From Nitrospirota bacterium (GTDB lineage: Bacteria > Nitrospirota > Thermodesulfovibrionia > UBA6902 > DSMQ01), in contig JACQXF010000057.1 in NCBI GenBank assembly GCA_016208855.1, positions 1 to 55,196 of the forward strand: 55,196 nt of DNA. Reading direction: 5' to 3'. Under the pieces are notes generated by a model. That model made no database searches and had not been told where the DNA came from. It saw nothing but the letters and a program-made list of their open reading frames with translations. This document shows positions 33,178 to 42,006 of the stretch, piece by piece (within the stretch, counting starts at the first letter, position 1; each line of letters starts with the position of its first letter). The translations under genes and the position numbers were made by a program.

Positions 33178-33305
33178 CTGAAGAACTCAATATTCTCATG
33201 ACTCTCAAAGTCCCCGCCGCTCAAAGGCTGCCCTTCAAAAATATCGGTAACAGCCCTTATGGCCTCTATCCGGTATTCCTGATTGCTGTCAAAGTGGAGT
33301 TTCAT
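33174..33305 (-). pseudogene. 43-codon stump of a Res-like (type III / helicase-type) restriction subunit
   Basis: My translation: MKLHFDSNQEYRIEAIRAVTDIFEGQPLSGGDFESHENIEFFR*. It resembles the characteristic N-terminus (F(D/E)xNQxYQxxAIxAVxxxFxGQP) of Res/DEAD-box restriction helicases. Its ATG overlaps the vsr TGA (ATGA) and its TGA overlaps the cbiGH ATG (ATGA). Confidence 0.5.
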
Positions 33306-33715
33306 GATAGTTTTTCAATTAATGATTTTTGCCATCTATCCGATTGTTTTTTTCCCAACCGGCATTGCCATAGAACAATCACTTGCCATCCGGTTTTCTT
33401 TAATTGCCGGATATTCTTTTTATCCCGCTCAACATTGCCGCTTATTTTCTTTTCCCAAAACTCCTTCCTCGTTTCCGGCAGTTGTGCCTTTTTGCAGTTC
33501 TTATGCTTATGCCAAAAACAACCGTGAATAAAAATAACGGTTTTGTATTTAGGTAGAACAATATCCGGCTTACCCGGCAAAGTCTTTACATTTTTTCTGA
33601 AACGAAACCCTTTGGAAAAGAGGAATTTTCTTACAACTATTTCGGGCTGTGTTTCATCACCACGAATCTTTGCCATTATCGCACTTCTTTTATTTTTTGA
33701 AAATATATCAACCAA
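33302..33715 (-). CDS. vsr: Very-short-patch repair endonuclease
   Basis: ...KNKRSAIMAKIRGDETQPE...PGKPDIVLPKYKTVIFIHGCFWHKH... TTG start overlaps the dcm stop. Confidence 0.9.
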   Translation of the reverse strand: MVDIFSKNKRSAIMAKIRGDETQPEIVVRKFLFSKGFRFRKNVKTLPGKPDIVLPKYKTVIFIHGCFWHKHKNCKKAQLPETRKEFWEKKISGNVERDKKNIRQLKKTGWQVIVLWQCRLGKKQSDRWQKSLIEKLS

Positions 33716-34742
33716 GATATTTGTCCAAATGTTCTTTGATGTTCATAGATTGAATGTAACTGAACCTCGGAGGAAGCGCATTGCCTATAAGCAAAGCCAA
33801 AGAAGCTTTCGGAATGTTCACCGGGAACTTGTATCTCCTCGGAAACGACTGTAACAAAGCCGCTTCCCGTGCCGTAATGACCCTGTCTTTTTCCGGATGC
33901 AAGAATCTGCCCTTTGAAGGATTCAGACAACCTCCGGTTATCGTTGATGAATAATCGTTCCACCTTAAACGACCGTATATGTCGTTAAATCCGACATTCT
34001 CCTTTTTATGGCACTCTAAAATGTATTTATCAGGCAAGTCTTTCCAACCGCCTCCGTCTTTCGGAATAAGCTGTATTCTTTCCATTACTTCGGGGGTGTG
34101 ATTAGCAGTGATCTTGTGTAAGGGGTCTTTAGTCGTTTCTATCGATTCCAATTTGCCTATGACTTCTTTTACCGTAACTTTTTCCCCGGTTCCATCAGCA
34201 ATATCCATTTCTCCCAACAAAGAACCTACCATTATCAAGCGTTTTCTATTTTGAGGCACACCGTAGTCTTTTACATTTACAATTTTCACTTTTGGACGAT
34301 ACCCAAGCGCTTCAAGTTCTTTCACAACATCTTTAAAGAGATAGTAATTGACCAGCCCCGGAACATTTTCCATCATGATTGTAAGGGGCTTCAGTTCTTT
34401 TACAAGCCTTAAATATTCCAGGATTAGGGCGTTTCGATCATCCCGAACGTTTTGTTTGCGATTCAAACGACGCACGGAAGAAAAACCCTGACAAGGCGGG
34501 CATCCTGCCAGCAAATGTAGCGACTCACCGTTTAATGCCGCAATTATTTCATCGGTGGATACCTTACGAATGTCATTTTCAATAACTTTCGTCTTGGAAT
34601 GATTCATCCGATATGCAAGCACTGCATGCTTGTCAATCTCAATCGCTACTTTTGCAGTAAAACCGGCTTTCACCATCCCTTCGGATAAGCCTCCGCAGCC
34701 TGAGAAAATGTCAATGGCATTATAATGATATATTTTTTTCAT
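33708..34742 (-). CDS. dcm: DNA (cytosine-5)-methyltransferase
   Basis: Motif I DIFSGCGG, motif IV GCPPCQGFS, motif VI MMENVPGL, motif VIII QNRKRL, motif X IGNALPP. Confidence 0.95.
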   Translation of the reverse strand: MKKIYHYNAIDIFSGCGGLSEGMVKAGFTAKVAIEIDKHAVLAYRMNHSKTKVIENDIRKVSTDEIIAALNGESLHLLAGCPPCQGFSSVRRLNRKQNVRDDRNALILEYLRLVKELKPLTIMMENVPGLVNYYLFKDVVKELEALGYRPKVKIVNVKDYGVPQNRKRLIMVGSLLGEMDIADGTGEKVTVKEVIGKLESIETTKDPLHKITANHTPEVMERIQLIPKDGGGWKDLPDKYILECHKKENVGFNDIYGRLRWNDYSSTITGGCLNPSKGRFLHPEKDRVITAREAALLQSFPRRYKFPVNIPKASLALLIGNALPPRFSYIQSMNIKEHLDKYLG

Positions 34743-34776: not shown

Positions 34777-36411
34777 TTAGGTAGATGAATTTACTTTAGC
34801 ATTATCCATTCGAGTTAGTAGATACGAAACTAAACTTAAAATATTTAAACAATCCAGTTCAGTAAACAAAGCAGGAACATTGGTGTCTATTGGTCTGTGC
34901 GATATCGGATTCCTAAAACCAGTCACTACTCCTCTGGATAAATGTCCTTGACCTTCTTGAATATTTATTAGAGATTCCGTGTTCAAATCATTCAATTGTA
35001 TTTCGGGGGGAGAATTAAAGGGTTTGCTTCCAAATATGCGATTGACTAAATCACTTCCATCCTCGCTTCTACCCGTTATATTTCGAATTATTTCACAATA
35101 TATCTGAACCCCTTGACTTGCAGCATCCCCATACTGTTTGTTCGTGTAATATGCTTTAATTCTTTCTCTTATACTATTATGCAAGTGTCTCCAATGTAGA
35201 AGAGGATATTCAGGAATGATGTTATGAAGTGCTTTAATTACAGGAGTGTATTTTTCGAGAGCATCCTCTCCTCCCAATGTTTCGATAATCTGTTTGGCAT
35301 TTTCCTTTACATCATCCGGTAAACTGTTTACCCATTTTTCCGCATCAATGCCTGTCGTTTCTTTTAAATCATTAGTCTTTTTTTCTTTTCTTTTCTTTCT
35401 CCAATCGGCGTTAATTTGTGAAACTATTCCAGAAAGAAAATTTCTAAGTTTTTCCATTTCGGGGTGTTCCCAATCTATGGATTGGCGATTTGTCGAAATA
35501 ACATCTTCATCTAAAAGGTCTATAAAATCTACGCTTATCCACCCGGTAAGATATTGGTAAAAGTGACTTGATGTACTGGTTGAGAAAAATTCAGGCGCAT
35601 TAACAAGCTTTCCTCTTGAAAAAAGGGTTACCCCTCTAAGACCGGAAGAAGGCACTATGGGTTTTTCAGAAGTCAATAGTTGTCCAATAATTTTCCCGGC
35701 ATATCCAGATTCGACTGGAACCAGAAGAGGAGATTCAAGGTTCCATTCAAATTCTTTTGTAAGTAAGCCGTATTTTCTTTTATTATCTATCGAAATTCTG
35801 TCTCCCGAAGGTGATTCGAGTAGCAAATTAAAAGTCTCATCAAAAATGAATATTCGCGATAAACTATCAGCTAATCCCATAAAATCAAAAGGCGTTTTTC
35901 TTTTTAAGCCTGTCATCGTAATAACTGTACCGTCGGAATCCTCTGTGACTGTATTTATAATAGTCGCTCTTGGCCTATAACTGCCTTTCGCTGCCATTAA
36001 ATCATCCCAGTCCAAAACAAATTCATTTAGTTTCCCTGCCTGCCTAGTTAAAACAGTAACGGTCTTTGCTAATCCAAATAGGGCAAGTTTTCCGAGTCCT
36101 TTTTTCCCTGTAGGAAAACGTTTATATTTGTTAGAAGGCGTATCGCCTTCATCATTACGTCTATTGCGACCAATCACAAGAAATTTATTGCTGATTTCAT
36201 CACGTGACAGCCCTATACCGTCATCCTCAATCTTTATTTCTTTTGGGTTTCCATTTGCTTCAATTAAGGTAACGGTAACATTTGTTGCATCGGCATCATA
36301 GGAATTGGAAATAATTTCAGCCAATGCGGGTGCAAGCGTGGAATACATTCGTAATCCAAGGTGCTTGATTGTTTGGGGGTCAAACCGCATCTCAAATGGT
36401 GATTGACTCAT
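34777..36411 (-). CDS. GHKL (HATPase_c_3, MutL/MORC-like) ATPase fused to a C-terminal HEPN domain of the Ymh/TIGR02391 type
   Basis: N box ALAEIISNSYDADA, G1 IEDDGIGL, G2 GKKGLGKLALFG. C-terminus ...NIQEGQGHLSRGVVTGFRNPISHRP...LSLVSYLLTRMD, with the Rx4H dyad encoded at 34897..34914. Confidence 0.8.
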   Translation of the reverse strand: MSQSPFEMRFDPQTIKHLGLRMYSTLAPALAEIISNSYDADATNVTVTLIEANGNPKEIKIEDDGIGLSRDEISNKFLVIGRNRRNDEGDTPSNKYKRFPTGKKGLGKLALFGLAKTVTVLTRQAGKLNEFVLDWDDLMAAKGSYRPRATIINTVTEDSDGTVITMTGLKRKTPFDFMGLADSLSRIFIFDETFNLLLESPSGDRISIDNKRKYGLLTKEFEWNLESPLLVPVESGYAGKIIGQLLTSEKPIVPSSGLRGVTLFSRGKLVNAPEFFSTSTSSHFYQYLTGWISVDFIDLLDEDVISTNRQSIDWEHPEMEKLRNFLSGIVSQINADWRKKRKEKKTNDLKETTGIDAEKWVNSLPDDVKENAKQIIETLGGEDALEKYTPVIKALHNIIPEYPLLHWRHLHNSIRERIKAYYTNKQYGDAASQGVQIYCEIIRNITGRSEDGSDLVNRIFGSKPFNSPPEIQLNDLNTESLINIQEGQGHLSRGVVTGFRNPISHRPIDTNVPALFTELDCLNILSLVSYLLTRMDNAKVNSST

Positions 36412-36534: not shown

Positions 36535-37410
36535 TTATTCCTCTTCCGATTTACCAATTAATCCTTTTGCATCTTTTTCTTCCAGTTCCAGTTTAGGAGA
36601 TGCGCTCTTTACCCTTTTCTCGATAAGCTTTATATGTTCAGCAGGGGGAAGCTGTTCAGGCAGTGTGCCGCCTATACGTTTAATAGCGTCTCTAACTTCT
36701 TTACCGACGTTTTCGTGTGTCCTGATTGCTGCTTGCTGATCTTTTATATTATCTTTTGCTAATTTATCCCGCGTCTGAGTCATGCGGAACTGGTTCGCAG
36801 CTAACTCAGTTGTATCCATGCGGTCCATGAGGTTTTCTTTTTCGGGTATCCTTTTATGTTTCTTTATCTCGTCCCTGCCAAGTCCTCCATACATGCCCTT
36901 ATATCCTGCATCATGAAAAACGCCGAACATTTTATCATGAACACCAGACTGGCGGGCAGCGCCTGATAAAGCTTTAAATTCCTCGGCTGTCTGTTCCCTG
37001 AGTTCCAAACGCTCTACATCAGCAGCAATGGTATCTGATATTTCCTGTCTGCGAGCTTGGATAGCAAAATACTTCTGAGCATTGGCAATTTCCGGCTTGC
37101 GCGGATCGCCATTCTGTGCTATAAGATAACAGGCAAACCGTGACAGATGATAGTCCGTTACTTCTCGAGAGCTTCCCGACCCAATATCAACCATTTTGCC
37201 GACGTCGGCAAAATGGTTTGCAGGGATATTTCCTGATTGTTTGCAAGAGGTTAAAGCCCTTTTGATTGCATCTTCAAAGCGTCTCCATTGTGTATATCCC
37301 AAGAGGGGCTGAATTTCCCGTGCGCTCCAATATTCTGCGCCATATTCATTAAGTTTCTTCAGATCTTCAAAAGACTTGCTTCCCATTGGCACCAAACTTT
37401 TATCTGACAT
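36535..37410 (-). CDS. dinD: DNA-damage-inducible protein D homologue
   Basis: Collinear with E. coli DinD as I recall it (...GAEYWSAREIQPLLGY...SRFACYLIAQNGDPRKPEIA.AQKYFAIQ.RRQE...HGYKGMYGGL...STELAAN.FR.TQT...). Confidence 0.85.
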   Translation of the reverse strand: MSDKSLVPMGSKSFEDLKKLNEYGAEYWSAREIQPLLGYTQWRRFEDAIKRALTSCKQSGNIPANHFADVGKMVDIGSGSSREVTDYHLSRFACYLIAQNGDPRKPEIANAQKYFAIQARRQEISDTIAADVERLELREQTAEEFKALSGAARQSGVHDKMFGVFHDAGYKGMYGGLGRDEIKKHKRIPEKENLMDRMDTTELAANQFRMTQTRDKLAKDNIKDQQAAIRTHENVGKEVRDAIKRIGGTLPEQLPPAEHIKLIEKRVKSASPKLELEEKDAKGLIGKSEEE

Positions 37411-37433: not shown

Positions 37434-37463
37434 ATTATATGCCCACATTTCATATCGTCTTAA
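37434..37463 (-). promoter_or_regulatory. Possible promoter for the dinD island
   Basis: Minus strand: TTAAGA (37458..37463) - 18 nt - TATAAT (37434..37439), then a GGAGGGG RBS before ATG 37410. No LexA box seen. Confidence 0.3.
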
Positions 37464-37520
37464 AATCCACCCCTGCATCCCGCATTTGCAATACGGGGTT
37501 TGTCTTCAACCCGAAAAAAA

Positions 37521-38276
37521 TCACTTCCTATACCCATGCTTAAAGTCCTTATCATATAATCTTGATTCTTTGCCGAGGGATGCCGCTGAAGCCTTAAGAG
37601 AATCTCCAATATAAATCAGCGCAGTCTTTTTAATGCCCGCTTCTTTAACAAGCGTATCAATATCCTTAAGCGCTCCGCGAACGATTCTCTGCTCAGGCCA
37701 TGTTGCTTCCTCAATAACTACGACAGGCGTGTCTTCCGGATAACCATCTAAAAGCTCTTTCTTTACCTTTTCAATCATCCCTACGCTAAGAAATATAATT
37801 AGCGTTGCCTTATGCTTTGCCAGTGCGCTTAGCTTTTCTGTTTCAGGCACAGGAGTCCGTCCTTCAATTCGTGTAAATATAACTGTCTGGCTGATTTCCG
37901 GTATGGTAAGCTCTTGCCCGAGTATGGCGGCCCCTGCCATTGCTGATGAAACTCCGGGGATTACTTCATATTCAATATTCAACTCCCTGAGCCTCTCTAT
38001 CTGTTCTGAGATGGCGCTGTAAAAAGAGGTGTCTCCTGTATGAAGCCTGACAACCACTCTGCCTCTGTCTACTGAATCTCTGATAATATCAATTATTTCC
38101 TCAAGGGCCATTTTTGATGAATCATATATATTCGCACTTAGGCCCTTCAGAAGTTCAGGATTTACAAGGCTTCCTGCGTATATAACCACATCCGCCTTAT
38201 CAAGCATTTTTCTGCCTTTTACAGTTATCAATTCAGGGTCTCCTGGACCTGCGCCTATAAAATAAACCTTTCTCAT
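37521..38276 (-). CDS. cbiF: Cobalt-precorrin-4 C11-methyltransferase
   Basis: MRKVYFIGAGPGDPELITVKG...LHTGDTSFYSA...IPGVSS. No repeat inserts. Confidence 0.9.
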   Translation of the reverse strand: MRKVYFIGAGPGDPELITVKGRKMLDKADVVIYAGSLVNPELLKGLSANIYDSSKMALEEIIDIIRDSVDRGRVVVRLHTGDTSFYSAISEQIERLRELNIEYEVIPGVSSAMAGAAILGQELTIPEISQTVIFTRIEGRTPVPETEKLSALAKHKATLIIFLSVGMIEKVKKELLDGYPEDTPVVVIEEATWPEQRIVRGALKDIDTLVKEAGIKKTALIYIGDSLKASAASLGKESRLYDKDFKHGYRK

Positions 38277-38977
38277 TTCCTTATTATTACCAGTGAAAAA
38301 TAATTCAGGTCTTCATCCCTTACATCATCAAGGTTTTTAAAAATCTTCTCCTCCTCCATGCCTGCCCTTGATATATATACCGACTTATCAATGAGTGCAA
38401 GTTCCCTGAGTGCAGAGCGTATCTTGTCAAACACCCTGTGCACTTTCATAAGAACGACTGTATCAAACTCTCTCAGCGTATCTTTTACATCTTCAATATA
38501 TGTGGCAGGAAGTATCGCAATCTTTTCATCTGCAAGGCCCAGAGATACCCCTGCCGCCCCTGCAGAGGCGTTAATTGACGATATCCCCGGTATAAAAACT
38601 ATCTTCGGGCATGGAGATGCCTTTATAAGTCTCTCATGCACATAAAAGAAGGTGCTGTAAATAGTAGGGTCTCCGATTGTAAGAAAGGCAACATCAATTC
38701 CGTTTTTTAATTTATTTAAAATTGCATTTGCCGCCTTTTCTTTAATGCCTCTTTTCAGACGTTCAATATTGGTGGTAAATAAATCATCGCCGACAATCAA
38801 TATTTTAGAATTTAAAATTTGTCTCTGGGATAGACTTTGAACGGCTTTATTTGTTCGTAAAATGAAACAGGATGTTTCATTGAACAAATACCTCGCAGTC
38901 AAACAGGATGTTTGACGAGAATGAGTGAAAAGGATATCCCCTGCTGTGTCTTTATCCTTCATTGTCTTTCCCCGCAT
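38273..38977 (-). CDS. cbiL: Cobalt-factor II (precorrin-2) C20-methyltransferase with a divergent N-terminus
   Basis: Core ...DVAFLTIGDPTIYSTF...IPGISSINASA...LMKV... is CbiL-like. The N-terminal G-loop is degenerate (DTAGDILFT instead of GxGPGDPxLLT). Alternative start at ATG 38962. Confidence 0.75.
   Translation of the reverse strand: MRGKTMKDKDTAGDILFTHSRQTSCLTARYLFNETSCFILRTNKAVQSLSQRQILNSKILIVGDDLFTTNIERLKRGIKEKAANAILNKLKNGIDVAFLTIGDPTIYSTFFYVHERLIKASPCPKIVFIPGISSINASAGAAGVSLGLADEKIAILPATYIEDVKDTLREFDTVVLMKVHRVFDKIRSALRELALIDKSVYISRAGMEEEKIFKNLDDVRDEDLNYFSLVIIRK
38861..38916. repeat. Twin hairpins sharing the 13-nt repeat aaacaggatgttt, inside the cbiL 5' region
   Basis: aatgaaac-aggat-gtttcatt (38861..38881) and gtcaaac-aggat-gtttgac (38898..38916). 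Confidence 0.7.
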
Positions 38978-40251
38978 ACTATGAACACAGGATTTAAGGC
39001 GCTGAGATGCCTCTTGCCTCCGATAGTCTTTGACCGCGATATTGAGACCTCTGTAATCTCAACGCTAAACCCTCTGTCTTCAAGGCATCGTACTGCCTCG
39101 TTTAAAGTCTCAATGGTTGCAGCATTTACTACAACAATCCCTGAAGTCATTTTTTCTTTAACTACATCAAGAATCTCATTGAGCCTCCCCCCGCTTCCTC
39201 CTATGAAAACCCTGTCTGGCTGAGGAAGCTCAGAAAGCGCCTCAGGCGCTTCGCCTTCTATAATTTTTATAGCAGCAATATTAAATCTATCTTTATTTTT
39301 TTTGATGTTTTCAATCTGCTCTTTATTCTTCTCTACGGCAAAGGCCTTTAGCCCGCGGCACAACCTGACTGCCTCTATGGATACAGAGCCTGAGCCTGAG
39401 CCTATGTCCCAAAAGACGCCGCCTTCCGGGAGCCTTAACTTATGAATAGTTATTGCCCTTGCTTCGTCTTTGGTTATCAACCCTCTTGAATGCGATATCT
39501 CATTTTCCTTTAACCCAAATCCTATTTTTAACCCCTGATCCCCAATCCCTAACCCCTGTATTATCACCAAATTCGGCTGTTGAAAAGACATCTTAGCAAT
39601 CTCCTCTGGCGCGCCCTCTGTAATTTTCTCATCAGGATATCCTAACTTTTCGCATACATATACCATCAGTGACGAGTGACGAGTAACAAGCGACGAGCTA
39701 AGGACTTTTGCTATGGCTGATGGATTATTTTCTTTATCAGTAAGAATAGAAATTTTATTATGCCTCTGAAGCAATGCAGGAATATCTTCTATCTCATACT
39801 CAAGCCGCCTTCTCTTTTTGGGATCAGGGCCTCCATGAAGGCTTATAAACAGAGCATCAGACCATACCTCTTTTATTCTTGAGAACGCTGTCTGTGCGCT
39901 TGAGAGATCAGGCAGTATTTCTACTTTGTCCTTTCCAAATTCCTTTATTGCCCTTCTTCCAATCCCAAAAAATAGGGGATCGCCAGAAGCCAATAGAACA
40001 ATTCTTACACACCCCTGCACCCCTCTTTTTAGAGGGGAATGATTTGAAATTTGGGATTTAATGAAATCTATCGTATCATCCACATTATTTATCACCTTAA
40101 CCTTATCCTTAACTTTTTCAAACTCATTGTATCCCTCAAACACCTCCATAAGCCTGTTGTTCGCAAGGATAACATGAGAATTCAATACAATCTCCCTTGC
40201 CCTCTCATCAAGAGGCCTGAAGCCAACGCCTATAACATAGAGTTTACTCAC
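38959..40251 (-). CDS. cbiET: CbiE-CbiT fusion (cobalt-precorrin-6/7 C5,C15-methyltransferase, decarboxylating; CobL-like)
   Basis: N-terminal CbiE (SKLYVIGVG...LASGDPLFFG) and C-terminal CbiT SAM-MTase (VFWDIGSGSGSVSIEA). GTG start at 40251. Three repeat inserts. Confidence 0.85.
   Translation of the reverse strand: MSKLYVIGVGFRPLDERAREIVLNSHVILANNRLMEVFEGYNEFEKVKDKVKVINNVDDTIDFIKSQISNHSPLKRGVQGCVRIVLLASGDPLFFGIGRRAIKEFGKDKVEILPDLSSAQTAFSRIKEVWSDALFISLHGGPDPKKRRRLEYEIEDIPALLQRHNKISILTDKENNPSAIAKVLSSSLVTRHSSLMVYVCEKLGYPDEKITEGAPEEIAKMSFQQPNLVIIQGLGIGDQGLKIGFGLKENEISHSRGLITKDEARAITIHKLRLPEGGVFWDIGSGSGSVSIEAVRLCRGLKAFAVEKNKEQIENIKKNKDRFNIAAIKIIEGEAPEALSELPQPDRVFIGGSGGRLNEILDVVKEKMTSGIVVVNAATIETLNEAVRCLEDRGFSVEITEVSISRSKTIGGKRHLSALNPVFIVCGERQ
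39529..39558. repeat. Hep-3 solo arm (C-rich on +) in frame in cbiET
   Basis: taacccctgatccccaatccctaacccctg. Peptide QGLGIGDQGLK. Confidence 0.75.
39667..39697. repeat. Hep-2 solo arm in frame in cbiET
   Basis: cagtgacgagtgacgagtaacaagcgacgag. Peptide SSSLVTRHSSLM. Confidence 0.8.
40007..40037. repeat. C4/G4 palindromic core (acacacccctgcacccctctttttagagggg) in frame in cbiET
   Basis: Same sequence as 42036..42066. Peptide SPLKRGVQGCV. Confidence 0.75.
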
Positions 40252-40358
40252 TGCCTGCGATTACCTCGCCTTCATAAGATATAAGATAGACAATAACAGG
40301 AGCCCCTGCTGTTATTGTCTCTGCATAGTTTTTAGCTGCATTACAAACCGCTCTGAAA

Positions 40359-40393
40359 AGTTTTGAGTTTTGAGTTTTGAGTTTTGAGTTAAC
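40359..40393. repeat. Tandem heptamers gttttga x4 in frame in cbiD
   Basis: Peptide NSKLKTQNSKLF. Related array at 49611..49652. Confidence 0.75.
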
Positions 40394-40429
40394 AAAGTCA
40401 AATATTTCCCTTGCTGTATTGAATTCTTT

Positions 40430-40463
40430 CCCCAATCCCCAATCCCCAATCCCCAACCCCTCC
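40430..40463. repeat. Hep-3 solo arm (ccccaat x3) in frame in cbiD
   Basis: Peptide EGLGIGDWGLGK. Confidence 0.8.
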
Positions 40464-40896
40464 AAAAACTCTGCCGCCTTCTTTACATCAATTGCTCCGT
40501 GCCGTACATGAGTCTGCGGGGTTGACATGGCAATTTTTAGCATCTTTGCCCATTGAGCGCATAGATGTATCTTCTCAAACCCGTGTTTTTTAGCCTCCTG
40601 CAAAGAAAACTCCAGATAATCGCCCATCATGACATAAGACTCTTCAGGAAGATGAAACCTCTCCATGTGGGCCCTCTCAGATGTCCTTCCTGCAGAAAGA
40701 ACAATCTCTTTATGTCCCATTGCCTTTGCCACATCCATAGATGATGTAATAGTGGCTGTCCATGCCTCTGTGGATATCGGCCTAACAATGCCTGTTGTGC
40801 CGAGTATGGATATGCCTCCGATTATGCCTAATCTTGGATTAAGGGTTTTTTGGGCCAATTCTTCTCCCTCGGTGACAGAGATGGTTATTTCAACGG

Positions 40897-40970
40897 CAGA
40901 ACTCAGAGCCCAGAGCCCAGAGCCCAGATTGTTTTTGTCTGTGTTCTGTGTTCTGTGTTCTGTGTTCTCC
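40897..40970. repeat. Hep-1 bipartite element in frame in cbiD
   Basis: cagaactcagagcccagagcccagagcccagat / tgttttt / gtctgtgttctgtgttctgtgttctgtgttctcc. Peptide ENTEHRTQNTDKNNLGSGLWALSS. Confidence 0.85.
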
Positions 40971-41100
40971 TTAATTGCTTCCCTCACCGCTTCCTCTATC
41001 ATCCTTCGCGGCACAGGATTTATGGCTGCCTCTCCAATCGGCATCGGAAGTCCAGGCTTTGTGACAACACCGACCCCTTTACCGCCTTTGATAATTAATC

Positions 41101-41122
41101 CTGTCGCACTGTCGCACTGTGG
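41101..41122. repeat. 8-bp tandem duplication (gtcgcact x2) at the cbiD frameshift site
   Basis: ctgtcgcactgtcgcactgtgg. Confidence 0.8.
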
Positions 41123-41195
41123 CGCTAATCTTTGCCCTATTAGTTACATCCGGATCATCCCCTGCGTCTTTTATCACAGAGGCATAAGCTGTTTT

Positions 41196-41232
41196 ATCCT
41201 GAGTCCTGTATCCTGAATCCTGTATCCTGAAT
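41196..41232. repeat. Tandem atcctga/gtcctgt-type heptamers in frame in cbiD
   Basis: atcctgagtcctgtatcctgaatcctgtatcctgaat. Peptide FRIQDSGYRTQDK. Confidence 0.7.
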
Positions 41233-41269
41233 TTATGCCTGCTGCCATCAGGAAAAGGAATCTCTACCT

Positions 41270-41375
41270 CAGAACTCAGAGCCCACAGCCCAGAGCCCAG
41301 ACTTTCACCCCCTCCCTTACCCTCCCCCCTCGAGGGGGAGGGGTGGGTGAGGGGGCTGTGTTCTATGTTCTTAAG
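41270..41375. repeat. Composite element: Hep-1 arms around a C/G-rich palindromic core, in frame in cbiD
   Basis: cagaactcagagcccacagcccagagcccagac + caccccctcccttaccctcccccctcgagggggaggggtgggtgaggggg + ctgtgttctatgttc. Confidence 0.8.
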
Positions 41376-41450
41376 CAAAAGCGTCACCGCTGCCTTTGCC
41401 GCCGCAGCAGCGCAAGCTCCTGTTGTATATCCTGAGCGTAGTCTCTTTTT

Positions 41451-41486
41451 GTCTGTGTTCCGTGTTCTGTGTTCTGCGTTCTGCAT
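41451..41486. repeat. Hep-1 solo arm that supplies the cbiD start codon and first 11 codons
   Basis: gtctgtgttccgtgttctgtgttctgcgttctgcat. Peptide MQNAEHRTRNTD. Confidence 0.8.
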
Positions 41487-41487
41487 T

Positions 41488-42006
41488 TTAATGCTCTATT
41501 CCCCTTCGCGCCTTTACGCCTCTTTTAAAATAATGTTTTATCTCTTTCATCTCTGTTACAAGGTCTGCCTTTGCAATAACATCCTCATGAGCATACCTGC
41601 CGGTAAGAACCAGTTCTATGTAAGCGGGCTTCTCATCCATCAGGGTAAGCAGCTCTTTAACGTCTAACAATTTTTTATGTACTGCAATATTTATTTCATC
41701 TAAAATTATCACAGAGTATTCAGAAGATGTGAGCGCCTTTTTTACATCTTTAAGGCCTTTTTGTGCAGCCTTAATTTCGTCTATAGCAGGCTCTTGCCCT
41801 CTAATGAACCCTGTGCCGTACTGTTTTATGGTAATCAAATCGTTAAACCTCTCCAGCGCCTTATGCTCGCTGCATCGCCTCTTTTTTATAAACTGGGCAA
41901 TGAACACCTTAAGCCCCGCCCCTGCAGCCCTTAGCGCCAGACCAAGCGCTGCCGTGGTTTTGCCCTTGCTGTTTCCTGTATAGACTTGTATGTACCCCTT
42001 TTTCAT
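41488..42006 (-). CDS. cobO: Cob(I)yrinic acid a,c-diamide adenosyltransferase (CobO/BtuR type)
   Basis: MKKGYIQVYTGNSKGKTTAALGLALRAAGAG.KV...QF.K. 172 aa. Confidence 0.9.
   Translation of the reverse strand: MKKGYIQVYTGNSKGKTTAALGLALRAAGAGLKVFIAQFIKKRRCSEHKALERFNDLITIKQYGTGFIRGQEPAIDEIKAAQKGLKDVKKALTSSEYSVIILDEINIAVHKKLLDVKELLTLMDEKPAYIELVLTGRYAHEDVIAKADLVTEMKEIKHYFKRGVKARRGIEH

Follow-up and report, generated by a model that had tools for sequence, protein, structure and literature searches.

A GHKL–transducer–HEPN protein in the R position of an m5C methyltransferase module from a Nitrospirota bacterium: a candidate methylation-sensing effector

Described relatives of the GHKL–Ymh architecture

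The architecture considered here has already been described computationally. Orlowski and Bujnicki (2008) recognized an N-terminal GHKL and a C-terminal Hypoth_Ymh domain in the putative restriction endonuclease (REase) R.NmeAIP, and Anantharaman et al. (2013) described, from restriction-modification (R-M) neighborhoods, fusions of the Ymh HEPN domain with paraMORC GHKL ATPases and predicted an RNase role for them. The NmeAI system of Neisseria consists of M (C5mCGG), R, and V. In the searchable literature on TIGR02391/Hypoth_Ymh and on GHKL+HEPN proteins, we found no member of the family that had been examined by biochemistry or genetics. The analyzed window, a stretch of 55,196 nucleotides from a Nitrospirota bacterium, contains a further example. 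Its effector shares with R.NmeAIP and the paraMORC-Ymh proteins the N-terminal GHKL domain, a middle region, and the C-terminal Hypoth_Ymh HEPN domain, and its operon has the NmeAI content of m5C methyltransferase (MTase), R, and Vsr, although the gene order is R-M-V in the window and M-R-V in Neisseria. The first-pass annotation had seen this architecture in no named system, which has to be corrected, as it matches R.NmeAIP (2008), paraMORC-Ymh (2013), and, with its N-terminal two thirds, BbrUII/HgiDII (NCBIfam, PADLOC).

A locus of N. gonorrhoeae is 40% identical to the effector over residues 1–539, including the motif GFRNPVQH. Its vsr product is 58% identical to that of the window and its partner MTase only 32–36%, and the window recognition site therefore probably differs from that of Neisseria. 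The Neisseria copies that we compared are disrupted, whereas the window copy is intact: the gonococcal homologue is interrupted by two in-frame stops, the dcm beside it is broken, and a search for an intact N. meningitidis homologue returned only partial entries of 288–311 aa. A 2026 preprint reports that unmethylated CCGG sites are cut in vivo and that this cutting depends on two R-M operons of the gonococcus, NgoAXIV/NgoAXIII, one of which may be the Neisseria member of the GHKL-Ymh family. There is one GHKL locus per gonococcal genome, and a second vsr locus also exists. In view of the stops, the broken dcm, and a single locus versus two paralogous enzymes in the preprint, a link of the family to these cuts is unproven.

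The Type II restriction endonucleases BbrUII/HgiDII (NF050001; GTCGAC) have a homologous GHKL+transducer engine with the same conserved residues and are also encoded beside DNA methyltransferases. Residues 6–379 of the effector align with positions 1–398 of the 659 positions of NF050001 (E=7.8e-65), with a score of 219.7 bits that stays below the cut-off of 550 bits for full-length equivalogs, and PADLOC REase_II models match the N-terminus as well. Unlike BbrUII/HgiDII, the effector has the HEPN domain in place of the C-terminal 260 profile positions, and M.BbrUII is an m6A enzyme, whereas the window partner is an m5C MTase. The nearest relatives of the N-terminal 400 residues form two classes, one of ~540–575 aa with HEPN and one of ~595–665 aa that matches the BbrUII/HgiDII model over its entire length. 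When eight relatives were tested, the Shedu-like PD-(D/E)xK domain SduA_C was detected in this longer sister class, above threshold in P0230 (4.5e-8) and weakly in P0161 (2.3e-4). On a common chassis, a DNase has been replaced by a HEPN domain, and as both classes share the conserved engine residues, the C-terminal domain is the interchangeable effector.

PrrC/RloC resemble the window protein in that an NTPase regulatory domain is followed by a C-terminal HEPN RNase (predicted as such in the window protein), and in that they are encoded within R-M loci, which in the window clade means between Type III mod and res. However, their N-terminal domain is of the P-loop/ABC-like type and not GHKL, so that the likeness is one of analogy, not homology. 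The window module also differs in that it brings along an MTase and a Vsr of its own, and it is often found without a further R-M system. Shedu type I-D/paraMORC3 (VcSduA) likewise unites three parts in one polypeptide, an N-terminal GHKL ATPase, a middle region that resembles a clamp, and a nuclease effector at the C-terminus, and ATPase and nuclease residues of VcSduA from Vibrio cholerae are both required for defense. In contrast to the HEPN domain and obligate m5C MTase of the system analyzed here, Shedu type I-D has a DUF4263 PD-(D/E)xK DNase and no linked methyltransferase.

Domain organization and conservation of the effector

The effector is encoded on the minus strand at 34777–36411 by an ORF with an ATG start whose product has 544 aa, and a Shine-Dalgarno-like AAGGAGGTG ends 4 nt upstream of this ATG. 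A scan for promoters and terminators yielded no more sites than were obtained with shuffled sequence. The homology search returned 2486 homologues, the best 120 of which are all ~540–570 aa long and have both domains. The family has thousands of members that are spread over many phyla of bacteria and occur in at least one archaeon, and those most closely related are often 70–90% identical even between phyla. The ORF is confirmed as a real gene whose product joins a clamp-type GHKL ATPase to a domain predicted to cut RNA, with domain matches far beyond chance level (Pfam, TIGR02391). The protein has three parts, an N-terminal GHKL ATPase, a transducer-like middle, and a C-terminal Ymh/TIGR02391 HEPN domain. 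The ORF, its strand, and every motif quoted in the first-pass annotation were recovered, and the profile searches that it had suggested for both domains gave scores above all cut-offs.

The GHKL (Bergerat-fold) ATPase domain covers residues 26–162 (35926–36336, minus strand) and matches HATPase_c_3 with E=3.1e-23 and 82.7 bits against a Pfam cut-off of 25. Its N box ALAEIISNSYDADA spans residues 29–42 with the key residues E32 and N36, the G1 motif IEDDGIGL spans residues 61–68 with D63, G65, and G67, and the G2 motif GKKGLGKLALFG spans residues 102–113 with G102, K104, G105, and G107. We counted conservation over 55 representative clusters with a pairwise identity of at most 50%. E32, N36, D63, G65, G67, G102, G105, and G107 are invariant in 54 of these, and the remaining row is gapped there. 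The ATP-binding residues are also kept in the nuclease-bearing sister class.

The middle domain (residues ~170–345; 35377–35904, minus strand) is modeled by AF2 with a pLDDT of mostly 84–92. With Foldseek, the whole model aligned to the GHKL and middle domains of Hsp90/TRAP1, MORC2 in complex with DNA, MORC3, and SMCHD1 over ~380–460 columns with E ~1e-13, and the DNA-bound MORC2 ATPase is among the top structural matches. According to this model, the ATPase is followed by a transducer-like (S5-like) domain with a conserved basic residue. The conserved residues K/R268, Y287, D298, D303, T307, R309, and W314 are common to the BbrUII/HgiDII-like class, and we therefore rejected the idea of a nuclease motif in this domain that is specific for the HEPN class. 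R309 is invariant across the 55 clusters and may function as a phosphate sensor.

The Ymh/TIGR02391 HEPN domain comprises residues 408–534 (34810–35190, minus strand). Hypoth_Ymh (PF09509) matches these residues with E=7.8e-22 and 77.8 bits (Pfam cut-off 25), TIGR02391 matches the C-terminus with E=1.2e-30 and 106.1 bits (cut-off 39.45), and among the PADLOC models, Aga_HEPN (2.5e-15) and PD-Lambda-3_B (5.3e-14) match the region. The domain contains the pattern QEGQG...GFRNPISH and, at residues 525–536, the closing-helix motif LSLVSYLLTRMD. The Rx4H motif R500-N-P-I-S-H505, the predicted catalytic dyad of the RNase, lies exactly at the codons assigned to it in the first-pass annotation (34897–34914, minus strand, with R500 to H505 reading from 34914 to 34897). 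H505 is invariant in all 55 clusters and N501 is found in 49. Position 500 is arginine in 47 clusters and lysine in 4, so that 51 of 55 have one or the other, and both R500 and H505 are invariant among 42 close homologues. This near-invariance across the clusters indicates strong selection on the catalytic residues at either enzymatic end. HEPN domains with an Rx4H motif function as dimeric RNases that do not depend on metal. The AF2 model of the domain is all-alpha with a pLDDT of 79. When only this domain was compared to the PDB with Foldseek, no match was significant (E-values exceeded 1), and the best ones by TM-score were the HEPN proteins 2hsb (0.48) and 3o10 (0.44). Neither phmmer nor a 24-sequence profile detected a sequence relative of the HEPN domain in the PDB.

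The methyltransferase partner and the genomic setting

The invariant partner of the effector is an m5C DNA methyltransferase of the dcm type (33708–34742, minus strand; PF00145 1.9e-60, TIGR00675 1.9e-47), which has the same orientation and starts 34 nt past the effector stop. Wherever the flank of a related locus is available and can be judged, an m5C MTase directly adjoins the effector on the same strand and on either side, in ~20 arrangements. These loci span Parcubacteria, Cloacimonadota, Planctomycetota, Proteobacteria, a Methanosarcinales archaeon, and others, and no other gene is conserved beside the effector. Such constant adjacency is a signature of a toxic activity that is restrained by DNA methylation. 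The defense context given in the first-pass annotation was right, and the neighbors that it had named, dinD, the MTase, and vsr, were all identified by their profiles. Effectors that are 75% identical can pair with MTases that are just 30–47% identical to each other (L005, L006), which would be unusual if the effector read the same DNA sequence as its MTase. An analysis of palindrome avoidance showed depletion of CTAG, GATC, GGCC, and others; none of the depleted palindromes could be assigned to the window MTase, and this approach to its recognition site was rejected.

The gene for the very-short-patch (VSP) repair endonuclease Vsr (33302–33715, minus strand; PF03852 2.4e-34) overlaps the end of dcm by 8 nt. 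It is frequent but not universal: most related loci carry it, and the long-flank loci L009, L014, L018, L019, L028, and L030 do not. The module is an m5C DNA methyltransferase together with a GHKL–transducer–HEPN protein, usually accompanied by the Vsr repair nuclease. On the other side of the effector, a dinD/Bro-N family gene (36535–37410, minus strand) matches NF008573 with 1.3e-109 and 366 bits against a cut-off of 242, and it also matches the PADLOC candidate PDC-S13 with 1.8e-112. No DinD match adjoins an effector homologue in the other loci, and dinD was therefore rejected as a component of the system. In L028/L029, a dinD homologue with 39% identity is located between the Type III genes mod and res, and the window dinD is a passenger within the island without a conserved partner role.

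This island of 4.3 kb lies between cbiF and cbiG, and both of its edges are remnants of Type III genes. At the upstream edge, 11 nt past the cbiF stop, tblastn and translation revealed the last 19 codons and the stop of a mod gene (37450–37509, minus strand), which encode LKTNPVLQMRDAGVDFKTI and are 84% identical to residues 522–540 of the L035 Mod; the C-terminal motif is the same as in the Mod of L002/L003. At the downstream edge, the first 34 codons of a res gene (33204–33305, minus strand) begin with an ATG that overlaps the vsr stop, and the frame then continues into the start of cbiG/H. These codons are 94% identical to residues 1–34 of the intact 899-aa Res of L034, and the DNA homology between the window and L034 (91% over 3325 bp) stops precisely at 33205. 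In the closest relatives (L001, L002, L003, L012, L034, and L035), Type III mod and res enclose the whole cassette of GHKL-HEPN gene, dcm, and vsr. The two stubs are leftovers of a Type III system of this kind. The decayed Res gene noted in the first-pass annotation is real, but the further suggestion that the effector is a restriction-like replacement of Res holds only in part: the effector does fill an R slot, but that of its own M(+V) module, and it did not take the place of Res, as the stubs derive from the Type III system that encloses the cassette in close relatives.

A proposed mechanism and its alternatives

We tentatively favor the view, which we hold to be quite possible although not yet probable, that the effector is the R-position part of a self-contained restriction-like module of the NmeAI/paraMORC-Ymh type, in which a methylation-sensing clamp activates a HEPN RNase. 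GHKL ATPases dimerize upon ATP binding. The GHKL+transducer engine would bind ATP and dimerize as a clamp on DNA, similar to MORC, Hsp90, and MutL-type ATPases. Clamping or ATP turnover would be permitted only on DNA without the m5C mark of the adjacent MTase, so that host DNA would be self-protected. Dimerization would bring together the two C-terminal HEPN domains to form an active Rx4H ribonuclease, which would cut RNA (tRNA, rRNA, or mRNA) and thereby halt the infected or invaded cell or the expression of invader genes. Vsr would merely repair the T:G mismatches that arise from m5C deamination. DNA binding, methylation sensing, activation by dimerization, and RNA as the substrate are the inferred steps of this model. 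Points against it are the pairing of effectors that are 75% identical with much less similar MTases, the listing of the family as putative DNA restriction enzymes in REBASE-based literature, the CCGG cuts of the preprint, the conserved D298 and D303, and the non-significant Foldseek matches of the HEPN domain. In essence, this model agrees with an earlier suggestion for this gene, an ATP-gated sensor that licenses a HEPN RNase.

It is also conceivable, although rather unlikely in our judgment, that the effector is an ATP-dependent Type II-like DNA REase that acts at the unmethylated site of the partner MTase and cuts either via the HEPN-like domain or via an unrecognized site in the GHKL/transducer part. 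That the effector takes the R position in an R-M-V operon would fit this, as would the homology of its N-terminal part to real REases of the BbrUII/HgiDII type, the REase_II matches, and the classification of R.NmeAIP, which has the same architecture, as a putative REase in REBASE-based literature. The in vivo CCGG cuts of the preprint, together with the one homologous gonococcal locus, point in the same direction, but the disruption of this homologue, of which each genome has a single locus, weakens the argument. The conserved residues D298 and D303 belong to the shared middle domain, which could conceivably harbor a DNase site. However, we detected no PD-(D/E)xK, HNH, GIY-YIG, or PLD nuclease in the effector with Pfam and NCBIfam, and the fold search with the whole model returned only GHKL-type ATPases and no recognized DNA endonuclease fold. 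HEPN chemistry relies on the 2'-OH of RNA, and HEPN domains are not known as DNA nucleases. Moreover, the sister class bears its own DNase domain exactly at the position of HEPN, which argues for a shared engine without a nuclease. That the effector is, more specifically, a sequence-specific, methylation-sensitive DNA REase and the active R subunit of NmeAI/NgoAXIV-type systems is, in our opinion, distinctly improbable. If DNA were indeed cut via the HEPN fold or the GHKL/transducer part, this nuclease fold would be new to restriction enzymes.

A role as a latent RNase of the PrrC/RloC kind, which guards a host R-M system (Type III here) and is freed by a phage anti-restriction factor without methylation being the trigger, is unlikely as well. 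The prrC gene is located inside the EcoprrI locus, and the nesting of the cassette in six relatives, as well as the Mod and Res stubs in the window, recalls that arrangement. Such a guard function was proposed by Anantharaman et al. (2013). However, the effector is always accompanied by an m5C MTase of its own, many loci (for example L009, L014, L018, and L019) have no other flanking R-M genes, and in L030 the sole other R-M system next door is of the unrelated Eco29kI type. Only stubs of the Type III genes are left in the window, yet the effector ORF is intact with all catalytic residues. Very improbable is the previously suggested function as a MutL-like accessory of the adjacent Vsr in VSP repair. 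Vsr is stimulated by MutL in E. coli and N. gonorrhoeae, vsr adjoins the effector in the window and in most loci, and the GHKL fold brings a weak match to the MutL model TIGR00585 (E=5e-7). This match, however, is confined to residues 27–75 with the N box and reaches 28.9 bits against a cut-off of 180, which is far from equivalog level, and the effector has no MutL C-terminal domain. It is the MTase, and not Vsr, that is never absent, and the conserved HEPN dyad would have no role in VSP repair.

If the favored model of a methylation-sensing clamp that activates a HEPN RNase is true, the GHKL-Ymh family, a computational prediction since 2008 and 2013, would represent a widespread R-M-type system whose signal is DNA methylation but whose target is RNA, and classical self/non-self marking would be joined to abortive-infection effectors. 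The family may also bear on the role in gonococcal pilin variation that has been reported for CCGG-specific R-M operons, with the link being unproven. As the cassette of the window is an intact and compact R-M-V module with all catalytic residues, it is a clean candidate for experiments on this family.

Effector gene, predicted fold, and neighbors

The 544-aa effector ORF of the window (34777..36411, minus strand) starts with ATG, with AAGGAGGTG 4 nt upstream, and is a real gene, as the first-pass annotation had claimed. That annotation is sound: all motifs it quoted were found where it had placed them, with R500..H505 at 34914..34897, and both of the profiles it had proposed for searching were matched. 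Pfam detected HATPase_c_3 at residues 26-162 (E=3.1e-23) and Hypoth_Ymh at residues 408-534 (E=7.8e-22), and the NCBIfam profile TIGR02391 matched at 1.2e-30, its 106 bits being well above the cut-off of 39. The GC content of the gene is ~0.36-0.40 compared with ~0.42-0.45 in the flanking cbi genes.

In an AlphaFold2 model of the effector (42-sequence alignment, mean pLDDT 80), ~380-460 columns aligned by Foldseek (whole model against the PDB, E ~1e-13) with the ATPase and middle modules of Hsp90/TRAP1, MORC2 (including its DNA-bound form), MORC3, and SMCHD1, and the N-terminal two thirds therefore consist of a GHKL ATPase followed by a transducer-like domain. An all-alpha domain was modeled for the last 160 residues. 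For this domain, Foldseek gave no significant match, the HEPN proteins 2hsb and 3o10 fitting best by TM-score, and sequence and profile searches found no solved relative. The HEPN assignment rests on matches to the curated Ymh/TIGR02391 profiles, on the RNxxxH motif, and on the placement of Ymh among the HEPN families by Anantharaman et al.

The neighbors are those already described, all on the minus strand: dinD (36535..37410), the m5C methyltransferase gene dcm (33708..34742), which starts 34 nt past the effector stop, and vsr (33302..33715), which overlaps dcm by 8 nt. A check of homologue neighborhoods, as suggested in the first-pass annotation, covered 35 loci, 23 from species-representative genomes and 12 from metagenome assemblies. 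Wherever a flank exists, an m5C methyltransferase gene directly adjoins the effector homologue on the same strand, either downstream (the effector-methyltransferase-vsr order of the window) or upstream, and the linkage is thus obligate in these loci. Vsr is found in most of them and is absent despite long flanks from L009, L014, L018, L019, L028, and L030. The dinD gene is not conserved beside the effector homologues of the examined loci, and the other neighbors vary (BREX genes, Eco29kI-type R-M, DUF499/DUF1156, integrases, and housekeeping genes). As only the methyltransferase is constant and Vsr frequent, the conserved unit consists of methyltransferase and effector, usually together with Vsr. 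At one locus (L024, 9722-12880), the gene between dcm and vsr of the module encodes a 1052-aa fusion of a UvrD-type helicase with a PD-(D/E)xK nuclease.

Effector relatives with and without a HEPN domain

There are 2486 database relatives of the effector. The best 120 of them have ~540-570 aa (two are shorter), contain both domains, and share 67-94% identity despite their origin in very different phyla; such high identity between distant phyla points to horizontal spread of the family. When the engine (effector residues 1-400) was searched against 1.8 billion cluster representatives, 5379 matches were obtained. Among the 96 full-length representatives listed, 54 belong to the HEPN class (~540-595 aa) and 42 have no HEPN domain, nearly all of these being ~595-665 aa long (one 586, one 770). 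Ten representatives were sampled as the second class, including P0149 as HEPN-class control. Seven of the ten aligned end to end with NF050001, the BbrUII/HgiDII family restriction enzyme profile, and in P0203 and P0180 the match was limited to the N-terminal part. P0230 had a Shedu-like PD-(D/E)xK signature above threshold (SduA_C, 4.5e-8) at the place of the HEPN domain, with a weaker signal in a second representative. In contrast, the effector of the window matched NF050001 only at positions 1-398 of 659 (E=7.8e-65, 219.7 bits versus a cut-off of 550).

Both catalytic sites are conserved in the HEPN class. In a set of 55 representatives with pairwise identities of no more than 50%, the residues that bind ATP (E32, N36, D63, G65, G67, G102, G105, and G107) are invariant, as are R309 and H505; position 500 is occupied by R in 47 and by K in 4 of the 55, and position 501 by N in 49. 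Within the first 340 positions, the two classes have their conserved residues in common, D298, D303, R309, and W314 among them. The simplest reading of these sequence comparisons would be a single common ATP-driven engine with interchangeable C-terminal effectors, which is a DNase in true restriction enzymes (such as BbrUII/HgiDII) and a HEPN domain in the protein of the window. Some members are decayed: L017 (5623-7247) has a frameshift at ~codon 154, and L022 (1050-2369) retains only residues 1-261, with a dcm fragment of 61 aa behind them.

Origin of the island in a Type III operon

In the closest clade of the window (L001, L002, L003, L012, and L034), intact Type III mod and res genes enclose the effector-dcm-vsr cassette, and the L035 cassette has at least mod directly upstream, with overlapping stop and start. 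The L034 effector is 94% identical to that of the window, the DNA is 91% identical over 3.3 kb, and homology ends exactly at 33205. In the window, a Mod stub (37509..37450, minus strand) comprising the last 19 codons, LKTNPVLQMRDAGVDFKTI and the stop, begins 11 nt past the cbiF stop, and a Res stub (33305..33204, minus strand) comprises the first 34 codons, is 94% identical to L034 Res, and continues in frame into the cbiG/H start codon. In view of these stubs and of the nesting in the relatives, the island (Mod stub, dinD, effector, dcm, vsr, Res stub) is a 4.3-kb piece from the interior of a Type III operon and has been inserted between cbiF and cbiG; both Type III genes were lost from it or never transferred. 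This explains the decayed Res gene of the first-pass annotation, which does exist as the Type III Res stub; the effector did not replace Res, contrary to the hypothesis raised there.

The dinD gene (dinD/Bro-N, PADLOC candidate PDC-S13) has its slot between Mod stub and effector. The sole DinD homologue found (39% identity, L028 14716-15582) is inside a separate Type III system, in the mod/res gap of L028/L029, and Type III operons may thus repeatedly carry DinD-like genes as passengers. In L002 (7278-7862) and L003 (2212-2883), the gap that separates Type III mod from the GHKL-HEPN gene contains a different conserved ORF of 194-223 aa, with an RRLSIH stretch and no Pfam match, which may be another embedded defense gene.

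Among the surrounding cbi genes, cbiD (40244-41486, minus strand) is split into a 135-aa ORF matching the CbiD N-terminus and a 266-aa ORF with the remainder, which may reflect a frameshift, a pseudogene, or a small insertion; GC peaks locally at ~0.51 at ~40900-41500. A cbiL-like ORF (38273-38977, minus strand) lacks the first ~70 CbiL profile positions and has an odd N-terminus, with an Enolase_C-like match at residues 53-91 (E=6e-8) before the methylase domain. Short palindromes are strongly depleted over the whole window (observed versus expected: CTAG 2 versus 61, GATC 36 versus 166, GGCC 108 versus 260), TCGA, CGCG, and GTAC occur at ~0.4-0.5 of expectation, and GTCGAC does not occur at all, which suggests that the host genome is under heavy pressure from R-M.

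Known relatives and possible mode of action

The view that the architecture fits no named system did not hold, as GHKL+Ymh has been described computationally in the putative restriction enzyme R.NmeAIP, with an N-terminal GHKL and a C-terminal Hypoth_Ymh domain; the same study assigned a GHKL N-terminus to R.HgiDII and left its C-terminus unassigned (Orlowski and Bujnicki, 2008). Iyer, Abhiman and Aravind (2008) defined the paraMORC families of GHKL ATPases, found in R-M operons together with cytosine methylases and Vsr. Fusions of Ymh HEPN domains with paraMORC ATPases near R-M genes were noted by Anantharaman et al. (2013), who put forward a role analogous to PrrC/RloC. In the NmeAI system, a patch-repair gene accompanies M (C5mCGG) and R. 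The module of the window is best filed as an intact new member of this NmeAI or paraMORC-Ymh type of restriction-like module. We found no experimental study of the GHKL-HEPN family in the literature searched.

One N. gonorrhoeae chromosome (NZ_CP119142.1) carries a single homologous locus (1547369-1558985), 40% identical over residues 1-539 with GFRNPVQH included, and flanked by dcm and a vsr that is 58% identical to that of the window. The GHKL-Ymh gene contains two in-frame stops, at codons 286 (TAA) and 332 (TGA), dcm is broken by a stop and a frameshift, and vsr is intact. In PLSDB, this complete chromosome is listed among the plasmids. The N. meningitidis and N. gonorrhoeae database entries have 288-311 aa and are named "ATP-binding protein, partial". 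A 2026 preprint, which gives no domain information, describes cuts made in vivo at unmethylated CCGG as dependent on the NgoAXIV and NgoAXIII operons; there is only one GHKL locus per gonococcal genome, and a link of these cuts to it is a lead, not evidence.

As to the mode of action, we tentatively prefer a four-step model, which has a reasonable though not dominant chance of being correct. The GHKL-transducer engine would act as an ATP-dependent dimerizing DNA clamp, licensed on DNA that does not carry the m5C mark of the partner methyltransferase; upon dimerization, an active Rx4H RNase would form from the two HEPN domains, and RNA cleavage would then cause cell arrest or block expression of the invader. 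Here, we infer DNA binding, methylation sensing, activation by dimerization, and RNA as substrate. Effectors with 75% identity (L005, L006) have partner methyltransferases that are only 30-47% identical to each other, which would be unusual if the effector itself has to read the DNA sequence of its methyltransferase. Vsr would repair m5C deamination damage, and it is highly improbable that the effector serves as its MutL-like helper, as the first-pass annotation had considered.

A true DNA restriction enzyme would agree with the position of the effector in the R slot and with REBASE tradition, but HEPN chemistry and the lack of any detected DNase fold in the effector (no PD-(D/E)xK, HNH, GIY-YIG, or PLD match) make this unlikely. 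Slightly less likely again is that the effector guards the surrounding Type III system in the manner of PrrC: the nesting of the cassette in a Type III operon speaks for it, but many loci are stand-alone pairs of methyltransferase and effector, and the effector gene of the window is intact although the Type III genes are gone. The architecture is of a known kind that has so far been described computationally. What is new is that its chassis is common with the BbrUII/HgiDII restriction enzymes, with the swap from DNase to HEPN demonstrated, and that the island has a nested Type III origin.
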